Position numbers and translations under genes: made by a program | In this document: piece by piece, positions 3,929 to 50,459 of the stretch | How positions within the stretch are numbered: the stretch's first letter is position 1 | Layout: each line of letters opens with the position of its first letter | DNA from: a virus | Length of the DNA stretch: 51,058 nt | IMG/VR virus record: IMGVR_UViG_3300015203_000011 | Span: 1 to 51,058 of that record | Reading direction: 5' to 3' (one strand) | The notes under the pieces: generated by a model | What the model was told of the DNA's origin: nothing | The model's input: only the letters and a program-made list of their open reading frames with translations | The model's database searches: none

Positions 3929-4474
3929 ATGAAAATAGGTTACGCTAGAGTAAGTACCGACAATCAAACACTCGACCCACAACTCGACGCCCTCAAAAAA
4001 GAGGGATGTGAAAAAATTTTTACGGATGTAGGTTCCGGAAAGAGATCAGATCGACCCGGACTCGAAGAAGCCGTCACGTCCGCGAGCACAGGGGATGTAA
4101 TCTGTGTAGTGAGGCTAGACCGCCTAGGCCGATCCTTACAAAACCTTACGGAAACTGTAACCAAACTTAAGGAAAAGGAAGTCGGGTTTAAAAGTCTCAC
4201 CGAATTAATAGACACAACCACTTCAACTGGAACACTCATGTTCCACATGTTAGGTTCGATAGCTCAATTCGAAAGAGATCTTATGAGAGAGCGTGTTATG
4301 GAAGGTCTAGAATCAGCACGACTTAGAGGGCGGGTAGGTGGCCGACGAATAACAGACCAATCAGCAAGATTAAACGTTCTAAATGCCGTACCAGATGAAA
4401 CGATTAAAGAAACCTGCCACCGTTTAGATATTAGTCGAGCAACCTACTACAGGATACTCAAGAGTGAAAAATAA
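3929..4474 (+). CDS. Small serine recombinase (resolvase/invertase family) with C-terminal HTH
   Basis: Has MKIGYARVSTDNQ, DRPGL, RLDRLGRS, FERDL..ER and a C-terminal ISRATYYRILK. AAGGAGG lies 6 nt upstream. Confidence 0.9.
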   Translation: MKIGYARVSTDNQTLDPQLDALKKEGCEKIFTDVGSGKRSDRPGLEEAVTSASTGDVICVVRLDRLGRSLQNLTETVTKLKEKEVGFKSLTELIDTTTSTGTLMFHMLGSIAQFERDLMRERVMEGLESARLRGRVGGRRITDQSARLNVLNAVPDETIKETCHRLDISRATYYRILKSEK

Positions 4475-4670
4475 TCTATGGACATACAAGAAAAAAAATT
4501 ACACAGAAACAGAATGGATTAATCTTCTAACAGGACCTATGTTTAAACGTCTAACACAATTGCTAGAAGACTCAAGACAAATAAGCAAAGAAAAGGTAGT
4601 TGAGGTAACACTAAATTCAGAAACGGAAGAAGTAAAATACACCTGGAAAAGTTCAGCATACTTAAAATAA
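4464..4670 (+). CDS. Hypothetical protein (GTG start)
   Basis: 68-aa ORF overlapping the end of the recombinase gene. Confidence 0.4.
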   Translation: MKNNLWTYKKKNYTETEWINLLTGPMFKRLTQLLEDSRQISKEKVVEVTLNSETEEVKYTWKSSAYLK

Positions 4671-4698
4671 CATGTACAATCCCGGCAGAGAGGACTGA

Positions 4699-4929
4699 AT
4701 GCACATATATAACGAAAGTTACCTGATAGATGAGTACACAACAGACGACTGGGATGCCCTAGTCAATACCCCGATTACAGAAGCCGTAATCGTATTACAT
4801 GATAACAAATCCTTTATCTCCACCCGAGGTCTGTTCGAACGTATTACGAACAAAGACCGAACTAAAACGACCTATTTTTGGGAAATTGAAGACAAAAAAG
4901 ACACCTACGGAGAGAATTTCTTAGATTAA
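4699..4929 (+). CDS. Hypothetical protein
   Basis: 76-aa ORF with a GAGAGGA ribosome-binding site. Confidence 0.5.
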   Translation: MHIYNESYLIDEYTTDDWDALVNTPITEAVIVLHDNKSFISTRGLFERITNKDRTKTTYFWEIEDKKDTYGENFLD

Positions 4930-7979: not shown

Positions 7980-9401
7980 ATGACCGAAATCAAAAAGAAA
8001 ACCCCAGGCGAAAAAGTTAAACGTTTTAAACAACGTTTCGATAGTTACTCCAACCCATTGACCGGTATTGGTTTCGCAGGACGAGATAAACTTCTAGCTA
8101 GTCAATTCTACCGTACTGATAAAATGAACGACGATGTTCTAGAAAACATGTATCATGACAATGACATTGCCGCCCGCGTGTGTGATGCTATCCCAGACCA
8201 TATTCTTAGACAAGGCTTCGATATTATAGTTGGAACCGAAACCTATAGCGATGATCTAGAAGATCTTCGCGATAATAATGAAGACCAAGTAAAATATGCC
8301 GATCAAGTCAATAAATTATTGATGCAACTTGATGAACTAGAAGCAAAAGAAAAGATAACTGATGCACTAGTCTGGGCTAACGTATTCGGCGGTTGCGCTA
8401 TCTATGTAGGTGTAGATGACGGCCGAGCACAAGACCAACCTATTGATATGAATAACATTAAAAATGTTACTTTTCTAAAGGTTGTTGATAAGCGATACAT
8501 TTTCCCAACACAATTCTACGAAGACCCATTGGATCCTAAGTTTGCGCAACCTCTTATCTACACCGTGTTCCCAGCTAGTAACACTTTAGCAGATGTTACT
8601 TTACAGAATTACGAAGCTCAAGTCCACGAATCGCGTATCATTCCATTCTATGGGACTCGTACCTCCAATAGACGAAGTCGCGAAAATCGAGGTTGGGCAG
8701 AATCAATACTCCAAAAACTTGATGAGGTGCTTCGTCAATTCTCAGTCAGTTGGCAATCAACCGCTCACCTTATGCAAGATGCTGCTCAGGCAGTCTTTAA
8801 AATGTATGGTGTAGTTGAATCTATGAGTGCCAACATGCCAGACTACCGAGCTAATCGACTCGCTGATATGGACATGAATCGTTCAAACGTCAGAACCATT
8901 CTAGTGGATGCCGAACTAGGCGAAGATTTTAGACGAGATACCTACTCATTCAATGGTATTCCACAAATCCTCGAACTGTTCATGTCACGTCTCGCAGCGG
9001 CAGTCGATATTCCAGTGACCTTGCTTTTCGGTATCTCACCTGGCGGACTTAATGCCACTGGCGAAAGCGAAATGCGAATTTTCTACGATAGGATTAAAGC
9101 CGCCCAAAAATATAAGGTCAAACCAAAAATTGAATATATTCTTCGCTTACTTATGTTAGCACGAAAAGGACCAATGAAGGGCAAAGAGTTCGATGTATGG
9201 TCAGTAAGTTTTCCATCACCATGGCAATCAACGGATCTTGAAAAGAGTGAGATCCACAAGAATAAAGCCATGACCAAAAAGCTACTTGCTGAGGCAGATG
9301 CTATTGAACACGGACGAATTCCAGTACCGGGGGATAAACTATCCGCTCCACCAAATAACAAACCAATTCCTACGGACTTAAACGAAACATCTAAAAAGTA
9401 G
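7980..9401 (+). CDS. Portal protein (DUF1073-like)
   Basis: 473 aa, directly after terL, with portal-like composition. Confidence 0.75.
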   Translation: MTEIKKKTPGEKVKRFKQRFDSYSNPLTGIGFAGRDKLLASQFYRTDKMNDDVLENMYHDNDIAARVCDAIPDHILRQGFDIIVGTETYSDDLEDLRDNNEDQVKYADQVNKLLMQLDELEAKEKITDALVWANVFGGCAIYVGVDDGRAQDQPIDMNNIKNVTFLKVVDKRYIFPTQFYEDPLDPKFAQPLIYTVFPASNTLADVTLQNYEAQVHESRIIPFYGTRTSNRRSRENRGWAESILQKLDEVLRQFSVSWQSTAHLMQDAAQAVFKMYGVVESMSANMPDYRANRLADMDMNRSNVRTILVDAELGEDFRRDTYSFNGIPQILELFMSRLAAAVDIPVTLLFGISPGGLNATGESEMRIFYDRIKAAQKYKVKPKIEYILRLLMLARKGPMKGKEFDVWSVSFPSPWQSTDLEKSEIHKNKAMTKKLLAEADAIEHGRIPVPGDKLSAPPNNKPIPTDLNETSKK

Positions 9402-9430
9402 TTGACAAAAAGAAAATGTTGTACTACAAT
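9402..9430 (+). promoter_or_regulatory. Promoter TTGACA-17-TACAAT
   Basis: Perfect -35 and 17-bp spacer, counted directly. Confidence 0.7.
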
Positions 9431-9459
9431 AAAGAAGAAAACTAACGGAGATATCCTAA

Positions 9460-11175
9460 ATGAAGTTAAAATTACTCGTATCTGGTTTGTTGTTATTTTC
9501 TACAGCCAGTCTCGCGGTGTCGACAAACTACGAATTGAATGCCCAATCAAAAGCAGAATTGTCAGTGGTTAAATCTGCAGGTGGCGCAGAAAACGATATG
9601 TCAGTTTCTGGTAGCTATAGTGCAACAGCAGATCACACTTACGATGTTGTTATTCTAGATAATACCGGCCCATTTGATACCATTAAATGGAGAAAAGATG
9701 CAGGTTCATACGTAACTGGCGCCGCCATTAGTGGACAAGCAATTCCACTTGCAGATGGACTGAGTGTAAACTTTAGTAATCTTCATGGTCACGTCATTAA
9801 TGATTCGTGGCACGTCGTGGCACAACTGACCCAACTGCTTAAGTTGCTTGATGCAGCTGGAGTTGTTAAGCTATCACTCTCTAATGCAGGCGTGCTGGTT
9901 GTCAGTGGGGCAACAATGTCAGGTAGTAATAGTGGGGATGTAACACTAGGAACTGCAAATGGTTTGTCACTCAGTGGACAGATTCTTTCACTTCAAGTAG
10001 CATCAAATTCAGTCCCTGGCGCCCTGAGTGCAGCAGACCACACGACATTTGCAGCTACCAGCGCGGCGAATACTCTAGATGTGAGTCTGGGAACAAGTAA
10101 CGGATTGTCATTGACAGCTCAAACACTCTCACTAGTAGCAGCTACAGATTCAGTGCCAGGAGCACTTAGTGCTTCAGATCATGCCGCCTTTTCTGCGAAA
10201 CAAGCAGCTGGTAACTACATTACAGCGCTCACGGGTGATGTGACGGCCTCAGGCCCAGGTTCAGTCGCAGCAACTATTGCAAATGGCGCGGTCACTGGAG
10301 CCAAATTAGCAAGTAATATCGCAATCAACACGTCTGTCGATGCTGTAATCCACTCTCTAGCGATTGGTGAAGGCGCTGGTTCCATCACAGGTAACTCGGC
10401 CTTAGGTATTTCTGCACTGAATGTAAACACAACCGGAAATCACAATACAGGGCTTGGTTATCTTGCACTTCGTTTTAACACAACTGGGCAATATAACACG
10501 GGTGCAGGTTGGGGTGCACTTGGAAATGTCGTATCATCTACAGACAATACTGCATTTGGCGCAGCAGCCGGCCTTGGTATGACCTCTGGCGGAGACAACA
10601 CCCATGTTGGATCTACTGCCGGATACATGGGCACAACTGGAAGTAGCAATACATCCGAAGGGTATGCTGCATCATATTATAACGTTACAGGTAGTAATAA
10701 CGTTGGTATTGGAAGTTCGGCACTCTACGGGGTAACTGGAAACAGTCAATCAGGAAACGTAGCCGTAGGTTCAAGTGCCATGGTAGCAGTAACGACAGGT
10801 TCCAATAACGTAGTGATTGGGTTCAATGCTGGACTTATTTTAACAAGTGGTGGAACCAACGTATTAATCGGCCATGCGTCAAATGCAGCAGCTGCTACAG
10901 ACACAAATAGTATTGTTATTGGTGATAGTGCACTTGGACTTGGCTCTAATATCACAGTGTTAGGTAATTCCAGCACAGTTCAAACTCAGATCTTTGGAGC
11001 AGTAACACAGAACGTACTAACAGTAAAACCAAGCTGTGCTGCAGGCCTTGCTGGTGCTAGGATTGTCTATCGTAAAGGTTCCGGTGGTTCAGAAGCAACC
11101 TCTGTATGCGATTGCGTAGAAGTCACTGGTTCCTATGCATGGGCTGCAACAACGACCCTTGGCGATTGCACCTAA
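9460..11175 (+). CDS. Secreted repeat protein with fibre-like repeats and YadA-head-like Gly/Asn repeats
   Basis: Signal peptide MKLKLLVSGLLLFSTASLA. Two tandem ~42-aa repeats containing SVPGALSA(A/S)DH. Many NxxxG repeats such as NSIVIGDSALG. It has its own promoter and terminator. Confidence 0.7.
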   Translation: MKLKLLVSGLLLFSTASLAVSTNYELNAQSKAELSVVKSAGGAENDMSVSGSYSATADHTYDVVILDNTGPFDTIKWRKDAGSYVTGAAISGQAIPLADGLSVNFSNLHGHVINDSWHVVAQLTQLLKLLDAAGVVKLSLSNAGVLVVSGATMSGSNSGDVTLGTANGLSLSGQILSLQVASNSVPGALSAADHTTFAATSAANTLDVSLGTSNGLSLTAQTLSLVAATDSVPGALSASDHAAFSAKQAAGNYITALTGDVTASGPGSVAATIANGAVTGAKLASNIAINTSVDAVIHSLAIGEGAGSITGNSALGISALNVNTTGNHNTGLGYLALRFNTTGQYNTGAGWGALGNVVSSTDNTAFGAAAGLGMTSGGDNTHVGSTAGYMGTTGSSNTSEGYAASYYNVTGSNNVGIGSSALYGVTGNSQSGNVAVGSSAMVAVTTGSNNVVIGFNAGLILTSGGTNVLIGHASNAAAATDTNSIVIGDSALGLGSNITVLGNSSTVQTQIFGAVTQNVLTVKPSCAAGLAGARIVYRKGSGGSEATSVCDCVEVTGSYAWAATTTLGDCT

Positions 11176-11194
11176 TATAAACAGATAATAATAG

Positions 11195-11220
11195 AAAAGG
11201 GCGCATTTAGCGCCCTTTTT
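11195..11220 (+). terminator. Intrinsic terminator
   Basis: GGGCGC-ATTTA-GCGCCC followed by TTTTT. Confidence 0.8.
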
Positions 11221-11227
11221 GCATTAC

Positions 11228-11256
11228 TTGACAATTTATTGAAAGTATGGTATAAT
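11228..11256 (+). promoter_or_regulatory. Consensus promoter TTGACA-17-TATAAT
   Basis: Both hexamers are perfect. The -10 ends 6 nt before the ATG at 11263. Confidence 0.75.
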
Positions 11257-11262
11257 ATTCGC

Positions 11263-11481
11263 ATGCCACCAGTTCGTAAACCATTGGCTAAAAAAGCCAG
11301 CTTATTTATTAGATACCCAGTGCCAGTATTGGCAGTAAGTACTCTTGTAAGCATGTTTGTAACGATGGGCGCTGTGTGGGGAAATTGGACAAGTAGAGTT
11401 GTTTCTTTAGAGGATCAAATCCATAAAGTTGAACAAAAACTGGATGTTATATCCAATAAGATAGACAATCTATCTCACTAA
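11263..11481 (+). CDS. 72-aa membrane-anchored coiled-coil protein, probably on a leaderless mRNA
   Basis: The ATG at 11263 sits at the expected transcription start with no SD upstream. The ORF-track TTG start at 11239 lies inside the promoter spacer. TM segment is VPVLAVSTLVSMFVTMGAVWG. Confidence 0.5.
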   Translation: MPPVRKPLAKKASLFIRYPVPVLAVSTLVSMFVTMGAVWGNWTSRVVSLEDQIHKVEQKLDVISNKIDNLSH

Positions 11482-11646
11482 GTCATCGTCCCAATTAATC
11501 GGATTATGCACGTCATCATCGATTGGCATAATAACAGCAACAATTTTATTGTAGCGTTTTATGTAAACTGGAATCTTCTGAATCTCGACTAGTTCGATAA
11601 CTTTCTTCCAGTGTTTACGAGCTTCAGTAATACTATAGATTATCAT
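11470..11646 (-). CDS. Phd/YefM-like antitoxin domain protein (58 aa), no adjacent toxin
   Basis: MIIYSITEARKHWKKVIELVEIQKIPVYIKRYNKIVAVIMPIDD fits the Phd/YefM N-terminal pattern. The internal ATG at 11646 is preferred. Confidence 0.6.
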   Translation of the reverse strand: MIIYSITEARKHWKKVIELVEIQKIPVYIKRYNKIVAVIMPIDDDVHNPINWDDDLVR

Positions 11647-11718
11647 TGTACGCCTTTTAAAGGGTAGAAAATCGCATAAGTTCGCGATTTTTAACATTTA
11701 TTGAAAATAAATAAAATA

Positions 11719-13041
11719 ATGCCTTATAATTCTATATCACAACTTCCCGAAAATGTCAAGACTTCTTTGACACCCGAAGAAGAAAAACAATTTTTAGCAG
11801 TTTTCAACTCCGTCTTTGGACGACATGGCGATGAAACCTCAGCCTTTAAGGTTGCCTGGGCCGCTGTAAATAAGCCAAAGAAAAAGGATGCAATGGACGA
11901 AATAAGACGATACGACTCAGTTGCCTTTTCCTCAAAACCTACTAAAACGAGTCAAGGTTTTTTGAAGGTAAGTGCCAATCTGAGCCGAACAGGCGTTTTT
12001 GTATATACAAACGCAGACGGTTCCAAACGTAGGGAACTTAGACATCCAGACGAAGTCTTCAAAACTGAAGTCATGGATTCGCTTCAAAGTGCTCCCGTAA
12101 CCTTCGGTCACCCAACAGACGGTAAAGATTACGTTCTAGTGAACTCAAAGAATTCGAAAAAATATACTGTTGGTATGCTCGGCGAAGAAATCAAACGAGA
12201 TGATAATTTCATCTCAGGTGGCATCACCATTATGGATTCAGAAGCAATCGAAGCCGTAGAAAAAGGTCACCGCAGAGAAATTTCCCTAGGGTACACCTGC
12301 GACCTGATCCCAGAATCCGGGGAATTCAATGGCGAAAAGTACGATTGCCGACAAACAAATATCTCTTATAACCATGCAGCCATTGTCCCACGTGGGCGAG
12401 CTGGCGCTGAAGTGGCTATAAGGATGGACTCCCAGGATGCGTGCACCGAGTACGTAACCGAAATAAACCTAAATGAGGAAGTAAAAATGGAAACCCAAAC
12501 GTTACATGTGGATGGAGTAGATTACGATCTACCTAAATCAACATCGCAAGCGATTGAGTTGGCCCTTAACAACCGATCCAAAGAACTGGCTGACATTAAA
12601 GCTGAATTGGATTCGACTAAAGGTCAGTTCGATGCAATGAAAGACGAACTCGCAAAGGCCAATCAATCCCGTGCCGATGCAGAAGATCCGAAACGCATTC
12701 AAGAAGCAGTGACCGCTCGTGTTGAGTTGTTGTCGAAAGCTTCAAAAGTTCTTGGAAATACGAATGATTTATCAGCACTTAATGATCGACAGGTCAAAGA
12801 AGCTGTTATTTTGAACGCAAGTCCAGATACGAAATTCGATTCACTTAGTGATGATTATGTAAATGGAAGATTCGACATGGTTGTTGAATCGCATAAAGCA
12901 ACTACGGAATCCCTTGCAAACGCCCGTCGGGCGGTCGATACTGCCGCTAGTGGTTCTGCTGATAAAGCAACGCCAGCTCAGGCCCGACAAGTCAAGCTAG
13001 ACGCTTATGCGAATGCTTGGAAAAAAACTTTAAATAAATAG
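11719..13041 (+). CDS. Head scaffold/maturation protein: ChaB-like N-terminus, DUF2213-like core, coiled-coil C-terminus
   Basis: LPENVKTSLTPEEEKQFLAVFNSV...AFKVAWAAVNK is ChaB-like. RRYDSVAF..GFLKV..RTGVFVY..RHPDEVF..PVTFGHP is DUF2213-like. Confidence 0.65.
   Translation: MPYNSISQLPENVKTSLTPEEEKQFLAVFNSVFGRHGDETSAFKVAWAAVNKPKKKDAMDEIRRYDSVAFSSKPTKTSQGFLKVSANLSRTGVFVYTNADGSKRRELRHPDEVFKTEVMDSLQSAPVTFGHPTDGKDYVLVNSKNSKKYTVGMLGEEIKRDDNFISGGITIMDSEAIEAVEKGHRREISLGYTCDLIPESGEFNGEKYDCRQTNISYNHAAIVPRGRAGAEVAIRMDSQDACTEYVTEINLNEEVKMETQTLHVDGVDYDLPKSTSQAIELALNNRSKELADIKAELDSTKGQFDAMKDELAKANQSRADAEDPKRIQEAVTARVELLSKASKVLGNTNDLSALNDRQVKEAVILNASPDTKFDSLSDDYVNGRFDMVVESHKATTESLANARRAVDTAASGSADKATPAQARQVKLDAYANAWKKTLNK
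11731..11759 (-). promoter_or_regulatory. Candidate promoter TTGACA-17-TATAGA for the Phd-like gene
   Basis: The reverse complement of 11754-11759 is TTGACA and of 11731-11736 is TATAGA. Confidence 0.5.
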
Positions 13042-13050
13042 GAGATTATT

Positions 13051-13842
13051 ATGGCTCAACTTTCATATAGCCTAAATCCTTCCGTAGCCTACGAAGGTGG
13101 ACTTGCGGATCAAGGGTTTAAAGATGTTATTTCGAAAATTAACAGCACCAACGAACTGATCCTTGTTACAGTAGTCAATGCTGTGAATAGTGCAGTTTAT
13201 ACCATTAATGTCAATGATGGCATTAATGCAGCTGCTAATGCAACTTATACCGCAGACGGTTCTGCTACCAAAACTGAAGCTGTTAACGGCCTCATTTCTG
13301 CAATCAATGCTCTTGCATTGAAAGTGAAATGCACCGTTGTCTCGTTGACCGGTGGTACTTTCAATGTTGAATTGGAAGATGAATCAGCAGCGGGTTCGCT
13401 TACCTTGCTTTCGACTGGTGATACACCTTCAGACGTAACTTTCAGCGTGAAAGTTGCTCAAGGTCAAGAAATCCCATTCGGTCGTTTCGTCTGTTTAGAT
13501 GAAGCACGCGGTGACGGTTTCGCACGACTTCCCCGCGTAAGTGGTGATGTTGGTGGTTTGACCTTCGGTGTTGTTCTTGCTGCTTCAGCACGTCAACCCA
13601 ATGCGGGTGGTTTCCCACACGCAAGCGTTTTGCCAGTGTTGAACAAAGGCCGAGTCTGGATGCGCGTTGAAGACGTTGCAACTGTTGGCGCTGCCGTTTA
13701 TGTCCGCTACACCGCAAATGGTGCAGGTCTTCCAGGTATGGTCCGTTCAGACGGTGATTCCAGTAAAGCTGCAGCCCTTGCTAAAGCAACCTTCAAATCA
13801 AGTGGCGGTGCTGGCGCACTAGTCATCGTTGAATTGGCTTAA
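13051..13842 (+). CDS. Putative head decoration/cement protein
   Basis: Lies between the scaffold and major capsid genes. Ala/Gly/Val-rich. Confidence 0.4.
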   Translation: MAQLSYSLNPSVAYEGGLADQGFKDVISKINSTNELILVTVVNAVNSAVYTINVNDGINAAANATYTADGSATKTEAVNGLISAINALALKVKCTVVSLTGGTFNVELEDESAAGSLTLLSTGDTPSDVTFSVKVAQGQEIPFGRFVCLDEARGDGFARLPRVSGDVGGLTFGVVLAASARQPNAGGFPHASVLPVLNKGRVWMRVEDVATVGAAVYVRYTANGAGLPGMVRSDGDSSKAAALAKATFKSSGGAGALVIVELA

Positions 13843-13853
13843 GGAGAATTATC

Positions 13854-14789
13854 ATGAGTGAAATTAGAAATGACGCTAATGAGGTAGCCTTTTTGGCACT
13901 TCAACTCGAGTTCATGCGTCAAAGAGAAATTGAAATCGAGTACGCCCTCCCCAAAGCACTCTCATTTGTAAGTGTGAAATCCGACGTGCCAGCTGGTGCC
14001 GAAGCTTTTGCTTACTATGAACTGGACAAACGTGCTGAAGCAGCATGGTTGGCCAACGGCGCAACGGACATTCCACTTGCAGACGTGTCAGGCGCTAAAA
14101 AAGTATCGCCTTTGGCTCGTATGGCTTCAGGTTATCGTTATACGTTTGATGACGTTCAACGTGCTCTTATGGCAGGTTTGAACTTAGATCAAAAACGTCG
14201 TGACGCTGCCCGTGATGCACTTAATCGCAAAATGGACTCAGTTGCCGCTCTTGGTGATGTTGAATTGGGTTTCCCAGGTCTTTTGAATCATCCAAACGTC
14301 CCAGTGTTGTCAGCAGCCGCTGCAGCGGCTGGTTCGCATGCTAAACCATGGGATGGCGCTGATAAAGTTCCATTGGAAATCCTTGCTGACATGAATGCAT
14401 TGGTAAACAAAATTGCAGATCAAACCCTTGATTTGCATGCAGCCAATGTTCTTTTGTTGCCATCAACCCACTATCGTTTGATCAGTGATACCCCGCTTGC
14501 TGCTAACGGATACAACTCTGACAGCATCTTGAATGCTTTCAAGAAGAACCATCCCGAAGTTTCAGTTTTGCCATGGATCTTGTTGGCAAATGCTGATGCA
14601 GCCGGAACTGGCCAACGCGCAATGGCTTACGAAATGAGTCCTAATAACATGGAATTCGTTGTCGCTGATCCAATCTCTGAAGATGCTCCGGAACGCAAAG
14701 GTCGATCCTATGAAATCGCTATGACTGCTAAAGTCGGTGGTTGCGTAGTGTATCGTCCTCTCGCCGCTGCCTATATGGATCTTATCTAA
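13854..14789 (+). CDS. Major capsid protein (DUF2184-type)
   Basis: FLALQLEFMRQREIEIEY, GYRYTFDDVQRA and GFPGLLNHPNV match the family pattern as I recall it. Confidence 0.8.
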   Translation: MSEIRNDANEVAFLALQLEFMRQREIEIEYALPKALSFVSVKSDVPAGAEAFAYYELDKRAEAAWLANGATDIPLADVSGAKKVSPLARMASGYRYTFDDVQRALMAGLNLDQKRRDAARDALNRKMDSVAALGDVELGFPGLLNHPNVPVLSAAAAAAGSHAKPWDGADKVPLEILADMNALVNKIADQTLDLHAANVLLLPSTHYRLISDTPLAANGYNSDSILNAFKKNHPEVSVLPWILLANADAAGTGQRAMAYEMSPNNMEFVVADPISEDAPERKGRSYEIAMTAKVGGCVVYRPLAAAYMDLI

Positions 14790-18490: not shown

Positions 18491-18675
18491 ACTGGGCTGC
18501 CCATCGAATAGCATCCTATAAAAGTCCATGGGCCGAATCTGGGTGCGGCTACTCAGTCAGTCTGCATGACATCTATGAAAAATGGACATTAGATGATGTC
18601 CTAGATGCCAATGATGTTTTAGATTTATATGATTCCTTACATGAAAAGAATATGCAAGAGTTGAAGAATAAGTAA
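18065..18675 (+). CDS. Frameshifted chaperone extension (GT-like, about 203 aa; -1 shift at 18430-18436)
   Basis: The -1 frame continuation KKDKQKKTQSGRGVELPEGLDW...MQELKNK ends exactly at the tape-measure ATG. Confidence 0.55.
18430..18436 (+). promoter_or_regulatory. -1 programmed frameshift slippery heptamer A_AAA_AAG
   Basis: It is in the zero frame as cta aaa aag. The -1 frame is open from 18367 to the TAA at 18673-18675. Confidence 0.6.
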
Positions 18676-20207
18676 TGAATGAAGCACTTCGCGAACTCGT
18701 AGTAAAAGTCAAAACATTCGCTGATACGAGTGGTCTAACTTCCTATGGGAAGAATATAGATTCCGTCATAGCTAAGGTAAATGGACTAGGTCTTGCACTT
18801 GGCGCAGGCGCAGCACTCTACGGAATGAAACGACTTGTCGAGAGTGGAGTCCAATTTGGCTCTTCTATAGTAGATAGCTCGAGAAAAGTTGGACTCTCTG
18901 CAGAGGAGTTTCAGAAATGGGGTTACGTAGCCGAACGTGCCGGAGTCTCAACAGAATCTGTGCAAAAGGCTATGGGGTTCTTAAATGCGAATCTCGGTGA
19001 AGCACAATTAGGAAGTGCAAAAGCAATTAAAGTTTTTGCAGCTTTACATATAGGTCTAAAAAATCAAGATGGAACTTGGAAAGATACAACCCAAGTCATT
19101 AATGAATTTTCTGATTCCCTAGCAGCACTACCAAACATAGCTCAGAAAACTGACTACGCTAAAAAATTAGGCGGAAAGGGAGCAAAAGAACTTGCTCAAA
19201 CATTTGGATTAGGTTCTAAGGCTATAGAAGAACAAAGAAAAGAACTAGAACGATTCGGCGGACTCCTTGATGGAAAAACAGCATCCGCACTTAAAGAACA
19301 CGAACATAAAATACTGCTAGTTCATAAAGCATGGGACGTTCTAAAAGCTAGGATTGCTTATGGAATGCTTCCGGTATTGGGTCAAATAACAGAAAAGATT
19401 GGTATGGTATCCAGATTTTTTCAGGAGCTAGAGGGCAAGACTGGTGCAGTTTCATTTGCATTTATTGCGATAGGTGCAGCGATGACAGCTACATTGATCC
19501 CGTCGTTCGCTCGATTCCTACCTTACATATTGCCTTTTAGTAAATTTCTATTGATTTTTACGGCAATAACTGCAGTAGTTCAAGAATTCATGGCCATCTT
19601 CGATCCTACAAAGATCGGCGTAATTGAAGTACTATTTCAAAAAATTTACGGTGATTCGGAAACCGCAAAACGTATGCAAGATATTCGAGATTCCTTTCAG
19701 GGGCTTTTTGACATCTTCACAAATAAAGAAAACACGAGTGCAATGTTGGAATTATTAGGGGATATGGCCTACGCATTAGAAAAGATTGCAGAAATAATAG
19801 TCCGTATAATACCATTATTTGTAAAACTGAGAAATTCAATTCAGTCCCTTCCCTCCTTGGATAAGATGTTGGGAAATCCAGAGGGAACGGGGAAATCTGC
19901 ATACGACGCAGCTATGGCAGCTAGACGCGGAGAAGCTACACCATACCATATCGCAAGACCAGGAAAGAGAGAATCAACGACTACACTAGATGGCGTAATC
20001 CCACTTTCAATGCAATCACCCGACAGTCCAGGCAATGTAGCATTCAATAAAAGTTCTGCATCCTACAACTCAGCCTCCTCAGTAACTAACCATAATACAA
20101 TAAATATCAATGGTGGAAATTTAGTTGAAGTTAGAAAAGTTATTGAAGATACGATCAATGGTAAATTAATATTTACTAAAGAAGATTTCGTTACGGCGGT
20201 GCCCTGA
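18675..20207 (+). CDS. Tail tape measure protein
   Basis: SRKVGLSAEEFQKWGYVAERAGVSTESVQKAMGFLNANLG resembles a tape-measure core. Internal hydrophobic segments. Position fits. Confidence 0.8.
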   Translation: MNEALRELVVKVKTFADTSGLTSYGKNIDSVIAKVNGLGLALGAGAALYGMKRLVESGVQFGSSIVDSSRKVGLSAEEFQKWGYVAERAGVSTESVQKAMGFLNANLGEAQLGSAKAIKVFAALHIGLKNQDGTWKDTTQVINEFSDSLAALPNIAQKTDYAKKLGGKGAKELAQTFGLGSKAIEEQRKELERFGGLLDGKTASALKEHEHKILLVHKAWDVLKARIAYGMLPVLGQITEKIGMVSRFFQELEGKTGAVSFAFIAIGAAMTATLIPSFARFLPYILPFSKFLLIFTAITAVVQEFMAIFDPTKIGVIEVLFQKIYGDSETAKRMQDIRDSFQGLFDIFTNKENTSAMLELLGDMAYALEKIAEIIVRIIPLFVKLRNSIQSLPSLDKMLGNPEGTGKSAYDAAMAARRGEATPYHIARPGKRESTTTLDGVIPLSMQSPDSPGNVAFNKSSASYNSASSVTNHNTININGGNLVEVRKVIEDTINGKLIFTKEDFVTAVP

Positions 20208-27504: not shown

Positions 27505-27918
27505 ATGTTGGCTTCAATATTAGCCTTAATAACACTTCTAGGACCTATTTTTGGGTACATCGTCAACAAGATTGTTGGCGGACTAAACTCGGCAGATGAC
27601 GCAGTGGCAGCTAACGTAGCTCTAGCTGCTCATCTTGCTGACGTTAAGAATAGTGCCCTTAAAGCCGTCAAAGAAATAGATATTACCTTCGTCTCTCCGG
27701 CAAAGGTTCGTGGAACGTTTACTTCAGACACGGCAATCGAAGCTAAGGCTTTAGCCCTAGAAAAGTTCAAGTCGAACATGGGTACAAACGAACTAGTTAA
27801 CCTAGCCATGGTCTTCCAAACCAACGCAGACGGCCTGAATGGCATCCTAAATACCATGATAGAAGCTGCTATTTACGATAATAGCGGACAAAAAATGGGC
27901 TCTATAGCCCTGAATTGA
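27505..27918 (+). CDS. Holin-like protein (paralog of 27059 gene)
   Basis: It shares the TM segment, an FVSP(L/A)K motif and an ALAE/ALEKFKS segment with the upstream gene. Confidence 0.4.
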   Translation: MLASILALITLLGPIFGYIVNKIVGGLNSADDAVAANVALAAHLADVKNSALKAVKEIDITFVSPAKVRGTFTSDTAIEAKALALEKFKSNMGTNELVNLAMVFQTNADGLNGILNTMIEAAIYDNSGQKMGSIALN

Positions 27919-27959
27919 TTGATTTTTTCATTATTTTTAGCGGATCATGACGATTTTTC

Positions 27960-27989
27960 TTGACTTGGATACCTTTAGTTTGATATAAT
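27960..27989 (+). promoter_or_regulatory. Promoter TTGACT-18-TATAAT with extended -10 (TGATATAAT)
   Basis: Counted directly. No ORF follows. Confidence 0.7.
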
Positions 27990-27995
27990 ATACTC

Positions 27996-28094
27996 AGAAA
28001 GGGAAGGAGCTCTGGAAACGGACCCTGACACCAGTACCACCGGCCTCCCTTTCGAAGATGCCAGAAGAAGCCCCAGAAGAGGGGCTTTATTTTT
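27996..28094 (+). ncRNA. Candidate ~100-nt structured small RNA
   Basis: It lies between a strong promoter and a terminator. A 10-bp closing helix pairs GAAAGGGAAGG (27998-28008) with CCTCCCTTTC (28044-28053). There is no start codon with an SD. Confidence 0.35.
28068..28094 (+). terminator. Intrinsic terminator 1
   Basis: AAGCCCC-AGAAGA-GGGGCTT followed by TATTTT. Confidence 0.65.
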
Positions 28095-28117
28095 ACCCTC
28101 TAATGGAGGGTTTTTTT
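28095..28117 (+). terminator. Intrinsic terminator 2
   Basis: ACCCTC-TAATG-GAGGGT followed by T7. The T-run overlaps the endolysin stop codon on the other strand. Confidence 0.75.
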
Positions 28118-28544
28118 ATGCCAAAAATAAGCACATTTCAGCTTTTCGCCTACGCGTCAGGCCATTGTTCACGATTGAGTGGATCTTATTCCACTTGATG
28201 AACTCGTTGGCAGCTGCATTGAAGTTATTTTGATTTACTTGGTGGAGCAAGGTGGAAGTCTCTATGGCCCCTAAACCGATGTTATAGGCTAGGCAAACTA
28301 AGGCACTGAATTCATTTTCTGTAACATCTACTTTCAGTAGTTTCGTTATGCCCAATTCAGTCCTGGCTAGATCATTTTCCAGTAATCTATCAGCCTCACA
28401 TTGACTAATTTCTTGCCCCAGATGTACCTCAGGACCAGTATGCCCATAACCTATCGTAGGTTTTCCACCTTGATCAAGATAGGCTTTAAATTTACAACCT
28501 TCGAAATCCTTAATTAATTTACGGCCAGCTACGTTCGTTTTCAT
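28116..28544 (-). CDS. Endolysin, GH24 (T4/lambda-type) lysozyme
   Basis: LIKDFEGCKFKAYLDQGGKPTIGYGHT carries the Glu-Asp-Thr catalytic pattern. Confidence 0.85.
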   Translation of the reverse strand: MKTNVAGRKLIKDFEGCKFKAYLDQGGKPTIGYGHTGPEVHLGQEISQCEADRLLENDLARTELGITKLLKVDVTENEFSALVCLAYNIGLGAIETSTLLHQVNQNNFNAAANEFIKWNKIHSIVNNGLTRRRKAEMCLFLA

Positions 28545-28548
28545 TTAG

Positions 28549-28806
28549 TCACCATTTGCAGTTCGTTCCTTGCTCAATAAGCCAAGATTGTAGAGCGGTA
28601 TCATTATCACAGACCAGAATAGTTACCGGGACTAGATTACCATTCGGTTGTAACTCTAGATATGAGCATAGTCTACCATACCCACTAGAGCACGGCACGT
28701 CTTCATGGGCCTGCAAATGCGTGCAACCTGCCATTGAATAGGTTAATAAAAAACCAACTATGAGAAGCCCTGCTGCTAGAAGTGCCATTTTCAATTCCAG
28801 TTTCAT
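28549..28806 (-). CDS. Lipoprotein adjacent to endolysin (possible outer-membrane spanin-like component)
   Basis: The internal ATG at 28806 has an AAGGA site upstream. Signal peptide plus lipobox is LLTYSMAGC. No C-terminal TM. Confidence 0.5.
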   Translation of the reverse strand: MKLELKMALLAAGLLIVGFLLTYSMAGCTHLQAHEDVPCSSGYGRLCSYLELQPNGNLVPVTILVCDNDTALQSWLIEQGTNCKW

Positions 28807-28991
28807 TCTTGATCCTTTTTCACGGTTGGCATTGATTTTATATGTTCCGTGTGCCGGGCTTGGCTTGTACGAAAACACTCTAGTGAGATGAGGTATTGTC
28901 CATTTTCCTTAGTTATGCTAGGGTTGTCAGAGTATAGCCATAGCATATACCCTGGATGGGCTTTAACTCTACATAGCACTAGTTCCCTCAT
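28803..28991 (-). CDS. Hypothetical protein
   Basis: 62 aa, with ATGA coupling on both sides. Confidence 0.4.
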   Translation of the reverse strand: MRELVLCRVKAHPGYMLWLYSDNPSITKENGQYLISLECFRTSQARHTEHIKSMPTVKKDQE

Positions 28992-32072: not shown

Positions 32073-32507
32073 CTAGACTGGGTAGAAGGCCAAATTTACG
32101 TATTCCTTACCTGTTTTAGCAGAAACTTTAGAAAATGCCCGTACTCCAATGTGTTTACCAGCGAGAGGGTTCTTGTCTGATACTACTTGATCACAGACTT
32201 CTTCGGTGACTTCTGCGGCGTCTCTTCCACCACCTAGGGCACTAATAATGTACTGTGCAATATTCTTTTGGGCCATGTCTCGGATTACGAAAGTTTGAAA
32301 ATAGCTTTTTTCATCGCCTACTTTAACATCCTCATTATCACTTTCAAGGATTCTTAACTCACCTACGAATACTTTTGAACCGTCTTTTCGTTCAACAAGT
32401 TTAGATGCCAAGATTTCTGCCTTGTAGTTCCCTGGAACGAAATAACTATTTTCTTTCGGTGGTCTAACGTCAACTTTTTGTTTTTCGATACCTGTAAATA
32501 CACTCAT
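32073..32507 (-). CDS. Hypothetical protein
   Basis: 144-aa ORF between the ClpP-like gene and the polymerase gene. Confidence 0.5.
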   Translation of the reverse strand: MSVFTGIEKQKVDVRPPKENSYFVPGNYKAEILASKLVERKDGSKVFVGELRILESDNEDVKVGDEKSYFQTFVIRDMAQKNIAQYIISALGGGRDAAEVTEEVCDQVVSDKNPLAGKHIGVRAFSKVSAKTGKEYVNLAFYPV

Positions 32508-33262
32508 TTCTTTACTCCTCTTTTAGGTTTAGCTTTTGATTTTTTTGCGGGTGCTTCTTTTTCTTCATTCTCGTCTGTTAAAACTTGTCGATATTTCTTT
32601 TTACCTTTTCTATCTTTTTTGACTTCATCAAAAATATGAACGAATGCTGCTTTAGCATATTCAATCTTCATGTACCCAATCTCATCTACGACACCGAGTT
32701 CCTTAGCTTCTTTGGCACTCAACCACTTGTCTCGCTTTAGATAGTTCTTTAGACCTTCGAGCCCACCGGGGAACCCAGTATTGTCTACAAAAATCTGCAT
32801 AGCTAGATCGTTCATACGTTCAAGTTCATCTGCATGGACTCGCATGTCATCAACGTGAGGTGATCGGGGCCATCCTGAGGTCTGGTGGATCATTACCGTC
32901 GATTTAGGAGTTGCTATTCTTAGGTCTCCGTAGGCAAGCAGGTCTGCTGCTGCGCTGCAGGCCTCCCCACTAACCATTGTAATGAAGTAGAACTCCTTAG
33001 GGGCGCAGGCGGTAATAGCATCCATGCTATCGAACATCTGAAACATAGCTGCAACATCGCCACCAGGTGAGTTAATGTTGATAGTTATGGGAAGTCTGGG
33101 GTTCATTTTGAACTGTCGATTAATACGATCATGAAATTCTATAGCAGAATCGGGAGTTATTTCCTGGACCCAGATCTCATCTGCGTCCCTAAAAGCACTT
33201 GATTCATCTTCATCATCCATATCACGTCGTGGTTTTTGGTTCATCATTTTACCTTTTTCCAT
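32504..33262 (-). CDS. ClpP-family serine protease with Lys-rich C-terminal tail
   Basis: Motifs ININSPGGDV, GEACSAAADLL (Ser), VMIHQTSG (His) and LGVVDEI (Asp). The start may be an internal Met at 33247 or 33244. Confidence 0.75.
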   Translation of the reverse strand: MEKGKMMNQKPRRDMDDEDESSAFRDADEIWVQEITPDSAIEFHDRINRQFKMNPRLPITININSPGGDVAAMFQMFDSMDAITACAPKEFYFITMVSGEACSAAADLLAYGDLRIATPKSTVMIHQTSGWPRSPHVDDMRVHADELERMNDLAMQIFVDNTGFPGGLEGLKNYLKRDKWLSAKEAKELGVVDEIGYMKIEYAKAAFVHIFDEVKKDRKGKKKYRQVLTDENEEKEAPAKKSKAKPKRGVKK

Positions 33263-39716: not shown

Positions 39717-40249
39717 ACTTCATTTCCCCAGCAGTCCCAACCTTCGGCCTTTTCTCTTGCGAATAGCTCGATTTTTCCTTGCATAGGAAACATTAATTCA
39801 ATACGTTTTCGTACTTCATCTGGTTTTTTACTATGCTCTCTTCTTTTTTCGCTAAGGAACTGTCGTATGTTCCTTGCACCTCGAGGTTTTGGAATACTTC
39901 CTTTACAGAAAACTAAACAAATCTCACATTCAGACATCGTGTAATAACCTGGATTTGGCCTCTCTTTATTCCAGATGAATGCAATAGTTTTATATTTAAA
40001 GCCCCATGAATTTCCTAACTCTATAGCTTCTTCGAGGTGGGGATTAGATGTCCACATAAATAGGATGCAGTTTTTTTCTGAGATTTCGGGTATTGGTAAC
40101 TTTTTTAAATCTGGGGTTGGCACTGTGGGATAGTGTACGAATGCACTACCCGTGCTTTCTTTTCCATTATGTTGGATACTGCCTTTATAGAACCATGGTG
40201 GGTCGGCGTAAATAACAGCATATTTTTTCTCTGGAAGTGCTGCAAACAT
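39713..40249 (-). CDS. MT-A70 family N6-adenine DNA methyltransferase
   Basis: VIYADPPWFY (DPPW motif). Confidence 0.85.
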   Translation of the reverse strand: MFAALPEKKYAVIYADPPWFYKGSIQHNGKESTGSAFVHYPTVPTPDLKKLPIPEISEKNCILFMWTSNPHLEEAIELGNSWGFKYKTIAFIWNKERPNPGYYTMSECEICLVFCKGSIPKPRGARNIRQFLSEKRREHSKKPDEVRKRIELMFPMQGKIELFAREKAEGWDCWGNEV

Positions 40250-40758
40250 TACACAAGTCCATTTTTCTTTTTAAACTTCAACATTTTCTTTTTTACAATA
40301 TTTTGTTTAAGGGTAGACAGCTCATCAATGAAGAGATGGCCACTTAAATGATCCATTTCGTGTTGTATAATAACGGCATTTTGCCCGTAAAAATGTCTTT
40401 CTTGAGCATTTCCTTCCAAATCAGTATATTTCAATCGAACAGTTGCATGTCGTTTTACGATGTCTGCAAATCTTGGTATTGAAAGGCAGCCCTCTTGACT
40501 ATCTACCTTCTCGACTGACATTTCTGCTATTTCTGGATTTATGAAAACTGAAGGTATTTCTTCACCATCGATTTTCGCTATGAAAATAGCATCACTCAGA
40601 AAAACTTGATTGGCAGCAAGGCCCACCCCGCCAATTCTCTCCAGCGTCTTGTTCATAAGTAATACTTTATCATTCAATAAACTATCTGGAAGGACTACCT
40701 GTTTTGCGTGTTTTCTGAGGCTAGCGTGAGGATGTAAGGATAATATTTGTTGGTTCAT
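40249..40758 (-). CDS. def: Peptide deformylase
   Basis: All three PDF motifs are present: GVGLAANQ, EGCLSIP and HEMDHL. Confidence 0.9.
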   Translation of the reverse strand: MNQQILSLHPHASLRKHAKQVVLPDSLLNDKVLLMNKTLERIGGVGLAANQVFLSDAIFIAKIDGEEIPSVFINPEIAEMSVEKVDSQEGCLSIPRFADIVKRHATVRLKYTDLEGNAQERHFYGQNAVIIQHEMDHLSGHLFIDELSTLKQNIVKKKMLKFKKKNGLV

Positions 40759-44544: not shown

Positions 44545-44567
44545 AAAATTTCCTATGTAGTTCTTGT

Positions 44568-44596
44568 ATCCTACTTCAAAAAATAAATCTTGTCAA
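44568..44596 (-). promoter_or_regulatory. Promoter TTGACA-17-TAGGAT (leftward replication operon)
   Basis: Reverse complement of 44591-44596 and 44568-73. Confidence 0.5.
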
Positions 44597-44647
44597 GAGT
44601 TGCTTTTCTTGGATTGGGTTGTTATCTTAACAATGGAGGCAGATTTT

Positions 44648-45070
44648 ATGATTTACATTTTGTCATTCATTGCTATGTTCGAGTCATTCACACACGACCC
44701 CTACCATGACAGGGCTCAAAATACGGTAGGTTATGGCTCCAAAGCTACTGAAAAGATGTGTATTACTGAGGATTATGCCTTGGCAATGCTGCAACGTGAT
44801 GTAATGTATCACTATTCTAGGGTCTCTAAGCTAAAAAATTTGAACGCCTGCCAAGTGGCGGCCTTAACTAGCTTCAGCTATAACGTAGGTTATGGGGCAT
44901 TTAGGGCCTCTAGGGTCTATAAAGAGGCAAAGGCTGGTAGATTACATGGTGCAGCTGATGCCCTCGATTCCTGGGTCTTTAAATCAGGCAAAAAAATGAC
45001 GGGCCTTGTAGCCCGTCGTAAGGTAGAAAAGAGGGTATTTTTGGCCTCTAATCTAAATGGATGCCGATAA
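44648..45070 (+). CDS. Second GH24 lysozyme-like protein, on the opposite strand to its neighbours
   Basis: Motifs FESFTHDPYHDRAQNTVGYG (Glu-Asp-Thr pattern), LTSFSYNVGYGAF and GLVARRKVE. GGAGG lies upstream of the ATG at 44648. Confidence 0.7.
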   Translation: MIYILSFIAMFESFTHDPYHDRAQNTVGYGSKATEKMCITEDYALAMLQRDVMYHYSRVSKLKNLNACQVAALTSFSYNVGYGAFRASRVYKEAKAGRLHGAADALDSWVFKSGKKMTGLVARRKVEKRVFLASNLNGCR

Positions 45071-48714: not shown

Positions 48715-49177
48715 AGCGAGCTCCTGTTAAATTAGCACTATAATAATTAATATTTGTAATATTAGCCTCTAAAAAATTTGAATTCTTTAGATCGGAATAT
48801 TCGAAACTGGCGTTTGTTAAATTAGCCCCTTGAAAGTCTGCATTATGGAGTATTGACTGTTCAAAATTTGCATTTTTACAATTTGCATTTTCGAAATTCG
48901 TATCGATAAGAATAGCTAAATAAAAATTTGCATTTGTTAAATTAGCAGATGAGAAATTTGCATTTCTCAAAATTGACCCATAGAAATTTATTCCTGATAA
49001 ATCGGCACTGCTAAAATCTAATCCTTTTAAATCTTTACCTTGGAAACTCACGTTTTGCCAATTTGGCCTCCTAGATTTTGTTAATCCTGATTTTAAACAT
49101 TGTTGATGTATTTCTAGGGCATCAATCAATTCTTTTTTATCTGCTTCATCGCAGATTTGGTTTAGTGTTTTTTTCAA
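48683..49177 (-). CDS. Pentapeptide-repeat protein
   Basis: About 20 consecutive A(D/N)LxX-type pentapeptides (ADLSGINFYGSILRNANFSSANLTNANF...). Confidence 0.85.
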   Translation of the reverse strand: MKKTLNQICDEADKKELIDALEIHQQCLKSGLTKSRRPNWQNVSFQGKDLKGLDFSSADLSGINFYGSILRNANFSSANLTNANFYLAILIDTNFENANCKNANFEQSILHNADFQGANLTNASFEYSDLKNSNFLEANITNINYYSANLTGARFEKNQTGTKN

Positions 49178-49449
49178 AATAAGCTCCTAATTCCGGCGAT
49201 TACCATTTCGATCGCTATCACGGCAAGTATGAATCCCATGAAACGTTCTAGAGCATTCAACGCATCTTCACTAAAGAATCGTTGCAGCCTAAATGAGAGC
49301 CATACTACCCCGAAACTGGCTGTCATGGCTAACAGAATAGCTGCAATGCATATGAGGGCGTTGGCTGAGTGTAGGACGATGTAGGCTAGAACTCCAGGTC
49401 CGGCTAGTAATGGCATGGCTATTGGGGTTACTGGAGTGTATTTTTTCAT
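49174..49449 (-). CDS. MarC-family (UPF0056) membrane protein, C-terminal half only
   Basis: TPIAMPLLAGPG and ERFMGFILAVIAIEMVIAG match the second half of MarC-family proteins. It has its own AAGGAG site. Confidence 0.75.
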   Translation of the reverse strand: MKKYTPVTPIAMPLLAGPGVLAYIVLHSANALICIAAILLAMTASFGVVWLSFRLQRFFSEDALNALERFMGFILAVIAIEMVIAGIRSLF

Positions 49450-50455: not shown

Positions 50456-50459
50456 TTTA

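Follow-up and report, generated by a model that had tools for sequence, protein, structure and literature searches.

The window examined here is an entire contig of 51,058 bp (40.5% G+C), IMG/VR virus record IMGVR_UViG_3300015203_000011, which carries a pair of small convergent genes in front of its head genes. The plus-strand gene encodes a 72-amino-acid (aa) membrane protein, and the opposing minus-strand gene, phd, encodes a 58-aa protein, mini-Phd, that is related to the N-terminal domain of Phd/YefM antitoxins. The explanation that we tentatively favour is that an antitoxin DNA-binding domain has been exapted as a small repressor within an antisense gate, formed by convergent promoters, at the front of the head operon. 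The pair looks like a built-in expression gate rather than a toxin-antitoxin pair because each gene has its own promoter, because the pair is placed before the head genes and because it recurs in close relatives. What is new is a pair conserved in related uncultivated phages, with conserved parts in at least eight contigs. To our knowledge, no truncated Phd/YefM protein encoded antisense inside the head operon of a phage has been described.

The mini-Phd gene and its convergent neighbour

Both open reading frames (ORFs) lie exactly where a preliminary description of this DNA had placed them (Table 1), and the whole module occupies only ~530 bp. The Phd/YefM likeness given in that description was checked against profiles. 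Pfam PF02604 matched residues 1-44 of the 58-aa protein to profile positions 1-44 of 74 (E 7.4e-10, 38.9 bits; gathering score 29.8 bits), and with a match above threshold the homology is real. The phrog_375 family, named 'Phd-like antitoxin', also matched (1.5e-5), and TIGR01552 gave 16 bits, under its 20.8 cut-off. Alignment to residues 1-44 of Escherichia coli YefM was gapless, with R10 and R31 identical. The rest of the protein is a 14-residue acidic, proline-containing tail, which ends near YefM residue 56 of 83.

The same pattern was seen across a family of seven mini-Phd proteins (56-63 aa). These proteins align over residues 1-42, with M1, S5, R10, K11, V20, K34, A37, V38 and P41 invariant and either R or K at position 31. 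A profile built from them was compared with the PDB and matched Staphylococcus aureus YefM (3.8e-6), Rv2865 (2.5e-4), E. coli YefM (1.1e-3) and Phd (0.01), as well as RelJ chains. These matches span only the first ~47 residues of chains that are 53-108 aa long, the Phd chain itself being 53 aa. Past the last strand, the tails of the seven proteins (14-21 residues, mostly acidic) are fully divergent, and the disordered C-terminal toxin-binding segment of ~30-45 residues is absent from all of them. In Phd, the N-terminal domain serves dimerisation and operator binding while Doc is bound by the disordered C-terminus; YefM needs both R10 and R31 to bind its operator DNA (PMC4803016). Judged from these alignments, the mini-Phd family has retained the half that acts as repressor and lost the half that acts as antitoxin, since the N-terminal domain and R10/R31 are present and the toxin-binding C-terminus is missing.

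The start and strand of phd were assessed by codon usage. The gene scored +0.25 bits/codon and was positive in its own frame only. A longer, 75-aa form was rejected: the position of the Shine-Dalgarno-like AAGG, a Pfam match that begins at residue 1 and homologues that start at the same Met all favour 58 aa. The 17-codon 5' extension of this longer form had a negative coding score, as did the other minus-strand ORFs in the plus-strand arm (4499-4853 and 18557-18712), and for this reason both the 58-aa form and the earlier statement that phd is the sole minus-strand gene of the structural arm stand. It had also been stated that no toxin is adjacent, and none was found: toxin families were missing from the pair's neighbours and from ten small early ORFs scanned, which are part of the contig's small ORFs, and PADLOC gave no matches. 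In the window and six relatives, the neighbours of phd are the convergent membrane-protein gene and the divergent head protease gene, with no co-directional toxin gene. A location of phd on an invertible segment was considered, as a serine invertase is encoded at 3929-4474, and was rejected because no inverted repeats flank 11200-11760.

The 72-aa protein has a basic N-terminal tail, a transmembrane helix (residues ~20-40) and a coiled coil of four heptads (residues 46-70); tail, membrane segment and coiled coil had all been noted in the preliminary description. Its Kyte-Doolittle hydropathy reaches a maximum of 2.0 across residues 20-38, hydrophobic residues occupy all eight a/d heptad positions (V46, L49, I53, V56, L60, I63, I67 and L70), and AlphaFold predicted a single helix over residues 20-71. 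The coding score of the gene was +0.18 bits/codon, and every other frame was negative. From these features the product should be a small bitopic inner-membrane protein with its basic tail in the cytoplasm and, by the positive-inside rule, its coiled coil outside. This outward orientation makes an exclusion or envelope-related function plausible. Profile and sequence searches gave no relative of known function for the membrane-protein family. Small bitopic inner-membrane proteins of phages include HK97 gp15, the T4 exclusion proteins Sp and Imm, and the Rz-type i-spanins. The 72-aa protein resembles these in predicted N-in topology, single transmembrane segment, extracytoplasmic helix and location among structural genes. 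However, it has no sequence or profile similarity to them, its extracytoplasmic part is only ~30 residues, and its gene is 16 kb from the lysis cassette (27505-28878).

The two genes have predicted promoters that face each other, with predicted transcription starts ~460 bp apart. The promoter of the membrane-protein gene (P_TM) is the sole 12/12 sigma-70 match within the 51-kb contig and the sole strong promoter there with a start codon 6 nt past the -10. Because this ATG is at the expected transcription start, the mRNA should be leaderless; both the consensus promoter and the leaderless start had been noted before, and both are kept in relatives. The opposing promoter (P_phd) scored 10/12 with a TGn extension. 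It was unlisted by the automated promoter scan because its -10 is without the conserved last T, but it is present as first described and is conserved in relatives. The 12-nt overlap of the 3' ends is exact, and convergent overlap is likewise a conserved feature.

Table 1. Positions of the features discussed, numbered from the first letter of the window.
Feature	Position	Strand	Basis or remark
Possible distal operator at the promoter of the 571-aa gene	9402-9430	+	-10 overlapped by TTGTA-c-TACAA (9419-9429); post hoc lead
Bidirectional intrinsic terminator, AAAAGGGCGC-N5-GCGCCCTTTT	11195-11219		predicted -17.7 kcal/mol (+) and -17.2 (-), z ~-5
P_TM, TTGACA-17-TGgTATAAT	11228-11256	+	sigma-70 match 12/12, TG extension
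Membrane-protein gene, 72 aa	ATG 11263 to TAA 11481	+	ORF, codon usage, family of 9, purifying selection
3'-end overlap of the pair, 12 nt	11470-11481		no spacer and no terminator between the convergent genes
Mini-Phd gene, 58 aa	ATG 11646 to TAG 11470	-	PF02604 match, codon usage, purifying selection
TTGTAC (GTACAA on the minus strand)	11646-11651		abuts phd start codon; GTACA-type copy
Shine-Dalgarno-like AAGG	11653-11656	-	6 nt before phd ATG
Dyad, AAAATCGC-N8-GCGATTTT	11668-11691		A-tract/hairpin/T-tract in the phd 5' untranslated region, just before the protease gene (+)
Perfect 17-bp palindrome, ATTTATT-gaa-AATAAAT	11696-11712		between phd transcription start and hairpin
ChaB-DUF2213 (Pa193 gp24-like) head protease/scaffold gene	11719-13041	+	first gene 3' of the putative gate
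P_phd, TTGACA-17-TGaTATAGA	11731-11759 (-35 11759-11754, -10 11736-11731)	-	within protease codons 5-14

On the plus strand, the terminator at 11195-11219 ends the transcript of the upstream 571-aa gene. For the phd transcript it is the first strong predicted stop, and it lies past the entire membrane-protein gene and P_TM. On the other side of the pair, the head protease gene has neither a Shine-Dalgarno sequence nor a promoter of its own. Its ATG was placed at 11719 because the MPY... start is conserved in relatives, and a candidate promoter at 11691-11730 was rejected because its predicted starts fall 3' of this conserved start codon. A scan of 11100-11900 against Rfam gave no family at threshold, and the sub-threshold matches all fell on the terminator.

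Two further symmetrical elements lie upstream of phd. The dyad in the phd 5' untranslated region had been described as ATCGC-N8-GCGAT; it is present, but its extent was understated, and it is really the longer AAAATCGC-N8-GCGATTTT. The contig contains it once (among 100 shuffles, 20 had one match or more), and no equivalent was found in the relatives examined. As RNA it was predicted to fold at -11 kcal/mol on the plus strand and -9.5 on the minus strand (z ~-5), and it is best taken as a pause hairpin or a bidirectional terminator of low strength. A role as Phd operator was rejected, as the dyad is unique in the contig and absent from relatives, and its 8-nt spacer with A-tract and T-tract suits a hairpin better than the compact Phd/YefM palindromes. 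In the case of the 17-bp palindrome, the left half and centre (ATTTATTGAAA) recur in the P_TM spacer at 11234-11244, a repeat that could be due to chance in AT-rich sequence (~0.3 expected by rough estimate).

Conservation of the pair in related contigs

Relatives were found by searching with the neighbouring protease (44-61% identity) and then inspecting their contigs. The membrane-protein gene, the opposing PF02604 gene and the protease gene stand in the same order in L050, L051, L052, L053, L054 and L055, and in a JGI contig for which only the gene table was seen. In each of these, the minus-strand PF02604 gene (56-63 aa) is directly upstream of the protease gene, and protease identity to the window is 54-61% across the contigs that share the pair. 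The contig of the closest relative, L060, starts inside phd (MIRYT...) and therefore shows the phd start and promoter only. In the relatives, the plus-strand gene abuts or overlaps the 3' end of phd by 0, 4, 4, 4, 10 and 80 nt, and the gene finder missed the copy in L052. Upstream of the pair, gene content varies (Asp-protease-like, Peptidase_M10, the 571-aa protein) while the block of membrane-protein gene, phd and protease gene is constant. Sporadic presence of the moron type was not seen, as the pair is in six of six close relatives with DNA and in the gene-table contig. Neither protein is an orphan, although phd had been so described, and the pair is no accessory insertion of scattered occurrence: wherever the region can be seen in a close relative, it belongs to the head-gene block. 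In L056/L057 and L058, where protease identity falls to 51% and 44%, the membrane protein is kept and phd is not present.

Eight homologues of the membrane protein were found by synteny, giving a family of nine (72-115 aa) with the motif YPGPxLA, a transmembrane segment, G.AWA and RLEE...KEEL.TIK...K.D. Direct searches had returned only the query: a word-indexed protein search matched each small protein of the pair to itself alone, and a HMMER scan of 1.84 billion representatives with the 72-aa query gave itself and three low-complexity matches. These searches wrongly suggested ORFan status, since the homologues are reachable through synteny with the neighbouring protease. The same lack of relatives in the homologue search and the HMMER scan would agree with the idea that the 72-aa ORF arose by chance in the head-operon leader and that the promoter alone matters. 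This reading is extremely improbable and is considered refuted by the family alignment and by purifying selection: the eight homologues share the motif YPGPxLA...G.AWA...RLEE...KEEL.TIK, and the coding score is positive in its own frame only. Across both genes in relatives, the proportion of nonsynonymous differences (pN) was 0.17-0.25 and that of synonymous differences (pS) 0.65-0.91, with synonymous sites saturated, and the ratio of nonsynonymous to synonymous rates (dN/dS) was 0.09-0.14, for phd too. For the membrane-protein gene alone, pN was 0.17-0.20 and pS 0.76-0.91. By these comparisons, both genes are real and under strong purifying selection.

The promoters of the pair are conserved along with the genes. 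A strong plus-strand promoter is just upstream of the membrane-protein gene in five of the six relatives with DNA (L050, L051, L052, L053 and L055); in L054 the gene directly follows its upstream neighbour. The start codon is 6-7 nt past the -10 in the window, L052 and L055 and 12-18 nt past it in L050, L051 and L053, and no Shine-Dalgarno sequence precedes the membrane-protein genes of the relatives. A minus-strand promoter for phd is in the phd-protease spacer of all six of these relatives, with the form cTTGACT/A-17-TAxxxT (TATAAT, TATATT or TATACT), and in L051 and L054 the phd start is 6 nt past the -10. L060 has TTGACA-17-TATTGT at the same protease codons as the window, and its TTGACA is kept despite saturated synonymous divergence. 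In L050, L051 and L053 the promoter scan gave one plus-strand promoter before the membrane-protein gene and one minus-strand promoter before phd (10-11/12), and none on the plus strand in the 45-57-nt gap between phd and the protease gene. L058, which has no phd, carries a consensus promoter and a GGAG ribosome-binding site directly before the protease gene.

Further searches did not yield the pair. Protease scans of IMG/VR and JGI data gave only distant phages (27-46% identity) without it, and an IMG/VR scan with the family alignments found no carrier. A tblastn search with the 58-aa protein and those of its relatives against 50,697 phage records returned nothing beyond one match at E 0.04, and no cultivated phage among these records carries the module.

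The known operators of YefM have a TGTACA core (PMC4803016), and motifs of this type are found near phd. GTACAA/TTGTAC ranked first of 619 hexamers for enrichment upstream of phd, with six of seven loci positive (p = 1.7e-7), above the -35 hexamer itself. The motif abuts the -35 in L050, L051 (as TTGTAT) and L053. It precedes the -35 in L052 and L055, falls within the spacer in L054, and adjoins the phd start codon in the window, L052, L055 and L060. In the case of L052, TGTACA is clustered in the module, which holds four of the locus's seven sites, one of them in the P_TM spacer. L051 has a 19-bp perfect palindrome over the P_TM -35 and spacer. When 487 hexamers of equal GC were ranked for intergenic location in the window, AGTACA was first and GTACAA second. 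These results fit a YefM-like DNA specificity of mini-Phd. GTACA-type motifs (TTGTACT or TGTACA) are also concentrated intergenically at 2121, 2161, 4673, 9419 and 44354, which suggests a small regulon or a phage-specific promoter element.

A proposed antisense gate weighed against other readings

The antisense gate would operate as follows. The head operon would be read from P_TM, because the protease gene is without its own promoter and no strong terminator follows the membrane-protein gene; transcription would pass through phd on its antisense strand and go on into the genes for the protease, cement protein and capsid protein. In L050, L051 and L053, head-gene transcription would have to cross phd because the 45-57-nt gap is taken up entirely by the phd promoter. 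As a small dimeric repressor, mini-Phd would regulate its own gene and probably act on GTACA-type palindromes at promoters of the region. P_TM and P_phd are face-to-face, and each mRNA would be fully antisense to the other. In the window, only weak hairpins lie between the 12/12 and 10/12 promoters; with no strong terminator there, the transcripts should run through each other, and the mutual antisense control that had been proposed for the pair is thus architecturally plausible. With promoters opposed ~460 bp apart and fully antisense mRNAs, RNA polymerase collision, promoter occlusion and RNA pairing would make expression of the regulator and of the head operon mutually antagonistic. Interference by collision and occlusion is known for convergent promoters 320-340 bp apart in lambda and 186 (PMC6593788). 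On this view the cassette would control when late genes are expressed and would not be a toxin-antitoxin pair.

Several observations weigh against such a gate. The P_phd -10 (TATAGA) lacks the conserved final T, the hairpin at 11668-11691 could terminate some P_TM transcripts, and L051 has two weak terminator-like hairpins past its membrane-protein gene. The single-sequence AlphaFold model of the 58-aa protein has the expected beta-alpha-beta-beta order at low confidence (mean predicted local distance difference test score 64.9), and Foldseek against the PDB with this model gave nothing below E 0.9; the fold assignment therefore rests on sequence profiles. The GTACA analysis was partly post hoc, and its loci are related and so not independent. 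No GTACA motif is at the window's own P_TM, nothing comparable is at P_TM in L050 or L053, and no single operator sequence is common to all loci. The gate would not be obligatory, because an unregulated consensus promoter serves the relatives without phd. That mini-Phd binds DNA and represses, that transcription reads through and that a timing effect results are all points that we infer from sequence.

It is possible, though on the unlikely side, that the two genes are conserved neighbours without coupling, the membrane protein acting for example in superinfection exclusion or lysis timing and mini-Phd regulating genes elsewhere. Convergence would then be inherited synteny and any antisense effects incidental. 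The membrane-protein family does live without phd in L056 and L058, the overlap ranges from 0 to 80 nt, P_TM has no common operator, and GTACA-type motifs are also in other intergenic regions (2121, 2161, 4673 and 44354). However, the convergent, spacer-less layout is kept by each of the seven contigs in which both genes can be seen (the window is one of them) while the upstream genes vary, and the position of the phd promoter in L050, L051 and L053 forces head transcription across phd. A toxin-antitoxin or exclusion module, as the preliminary description had it, is unlikely. Here the membrane protein would be toxic or excluding and would be checked by mini-Phd, by the phd mRNA as a type I-like antisense RNA, or by both. 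The genes are always adjacent in the Phd-bearing clade, the predicted phd transcript arrives at the terminator only after spanning the membrane-protein mRNA in full, 5' AUG included, and by inference only the acidic mini-Phd tail complements in charge the +5 cytoplasmic tail of the membrane protein. This module is nonetheless not supported, as mini-Phd has no toxin-binding C-terminus, its tails are variable and the membrane protein is found without phd. In addition, the genes are convergent instead of forming a co-directional operon, type I toxins do not resemble a protein of 72-115 aa whose coiled coil is conserved, and PADLOC gave no matches. The phage appears virulent, because no integrase or repressor was found among the ORFs scanned in the window and the only such enzyme is a small serine invertase; in an apparently virulent phage with its own DNA polymerase, primase and helicase, addiction has no obvious use.

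A combined control and exclusion device is a shade less likely again. A harmful or exclusion-active membrane effector, translated from a leaderless mRNA, would be held back by the opposing gene at two levels, with the antitoxin DNA-binding domain as repressor and the phd mRNA as full-length antisense RNA. Mini-Phd could be proteolysed on schedule, as the phage has a ClpP-like gene (32504-33262), and one switch would time both the effector and the head genes. The other proposal made earlier, a decoy, is quite improbable: mini-Phd would neutralise a host toxin of the Doc, YoeB, RelE or ParE type, or disturb a host Phd/YefM antitoxin or operator. In its favour are a Phd/YefM family member without a cognate toxin, the classification of phrog_375 as a moron or host-takeover gene, and documented phage-borne antitoxins (T4 Dmd) and orphan antitoxins proposed as anti-addiction factors (PMC7354431). 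A protein that ends at about YefM residue 56 is without the C-terminal segment that wraps the toxin, however, and the remaining tails of 14-21 residues are wholly different between relatives. The fixed antisense position in the head operon would also be left unexplained by a decoy role.

Comparison with known systems shows likenesses on both sides of the pair. With the Phd/YefM antitoxins (P1 Phd, E. coli and S. aureus YefM, Mycobacterium tuberculosis RelJ/Rv2865), mini-Phd shares the homologous N-terminal domain, R10/R31 and, near its promoter, enrichment of a YefM-type GTACA motif. It differs in its 56-63 aa without a toxin-binding half, in having no toxin gene that could be found, and in being encoded by a monocistronic gene antisense inside the structural operon of an apparently virulent phage. 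The type I loci bsrG/SR4 and txpA/RatA of Bacillus subtilis have convergent transcripts that overlap at their 3' ends. The cassette is similar in having a small single-pass membrane-protein gene convergent with an overlapping predicted antisense transcript, but the antisense partner is a protein-coding mRNA. Its membrane protein is also larger (72-115 aa against toxins of less than ~60 aa), has a conserved coiled coil and occurs without the partner in sister phages. The switches of temperate phages (186 pR/pL and pR/pE, lambda PR/PRE, P2 Pe/Pc) likewise have opposing promoters a few hundred bp apart with no terminator between them, and one transcript that encodes a small DNA-binding regulator. 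At convergent phage promoters, collision, occlusion and 'sitting duck' removal serve as modes of interference (PMC6593788). Unlike these switches, the cassette fronts the head genes of an apparently virulent phage instead of a lysis-lysogeny decision, its putative regulator would have an antitoxin fold and not that of CI, Cro or Apl, and both of its transcripts are coding over their first half.

Other features of the contig and implications

The pair is within a plus-strand structural arm (~2360-27918). Genes for the small terminase, large terminase, portal and 571-aa signal-peptide protein precede it, and those for the ChaB-DUF2213 head protease/scaffold, cement protein, major capsid protein, tail proteins and a holin-like protein follow it. 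The minus-strand arm encodes a lysozyme, a split DNA polymerase, a helicase, a primase, an exonuclease, PhoH, a ClpP-like protease and a peptide deformylase. A lipobox protein adjoins the lysozyme gene and points to a Gram-negative host. Protease identity to the nearest cultivated phages is only ~34%, and a megablast search with 9000-14000 against phages gave no match.

Several observations concern the genes on either side of the pair. The 571-aa protein (9402-11219) has a signal peptide, repeats, its own promoter (TTGACA-17-TACAAT), its own terminator and a Cys-rich C-terminal domain ending ...GDCT. Domains with this ending are also in upstream neighbours of the pair in L052 (6001-6279, 92 aa), L054 (3352-4374, 340 aa) and L055 (upstream of 1208). 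In more distant relatives, a Mu-F-like gene follows the portal instead of a 571-aa-type gene. The N-terminal ChaB domain of the head protease/scaffold (PF06150, 11719-11892) is kept as a fusion in the closer relatives P0007-P0011, P0013 and P0016 and is absent from distant relatives, which begin at the window's Met at nt 11893. An AAGGA ribosome-binding site stands before this Met and makes a shorter internal protease product possible. In a distant phage clade, represented by L007, L009, L010 and L013 (IMG/VR sample 3300020045), small minus-strand genes are directly upstream of the protease gene (~6001; ~5071 in L010), and in L009, L010 and L013 they include a 58-82-aa protein that resembles the ClpX zinc-finger domain by its CxxC...CxxC pattern. 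Antisense small genes at the protease junction may be a recurring theme.

Elsewhere in the contig, the serine DNA invertase (181 aa, 3929-4474, plus strand) matched phrog_125 (8.6e-60), and its best genomic relatives (45-57%) include several Legionella genomes, a weak host hint. A 31-nt inverted repeat (2363-2393/2676-2706), 77% complementary with arms 282 nt apart and a AAAGGTTACC core, is at the junction of the divergent arms and may be an invertible switch. The stretch at 27960-28111 (plus strand) separates the holin-like gene from the lysozyme gene and resembles a gene for a small RNA: it has a strong TTGACT-18-TATAAT promoter with TG (11/12) and tandem terminators (28067-28088 and 28095-28111) ~80-120 nt on, contains no ORF and matched no Rfam family. 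Two phage-lysozyme genes are present, at 28116-28544 (minus strand) and 44564-45070 (plus strand); one of the two belongs to the early arm and is encoded on its opposite strand. The replication arm carries a ClpP-family protease gene (32504-33262, minus strand), besides the DUF2213 head protein, and a peptide deformylase gene (40249-40758, minus strand). A MarC-family membrane-protein gene appears split (49174-50491, minus strand), with its N-terminal half at 50177-50491 and its C-terminal half at 49174-49449 covering profile positions 2-92 and 113-203, and an endonuclease VII/HNH-type gene (49599-50180) between them.

If the antisense gate is the correct explanation of the pair, a virulent phage lineage took the DNA-binding half of an antitoxin, dropped the toxin-binding half and set the remainder antisense at the front of its head operon. 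An antitoxin domain would then clearly have been exapted to time phage development, and the cassette would represent a minimal convergent-promoter switch, of natural origin, that operates outside any choice between lysis and lysogeny. Such a case would also call for caution, in that short Phd/YefM matches in phages should not be called antitoxins or anti-defence decoys by name alone.

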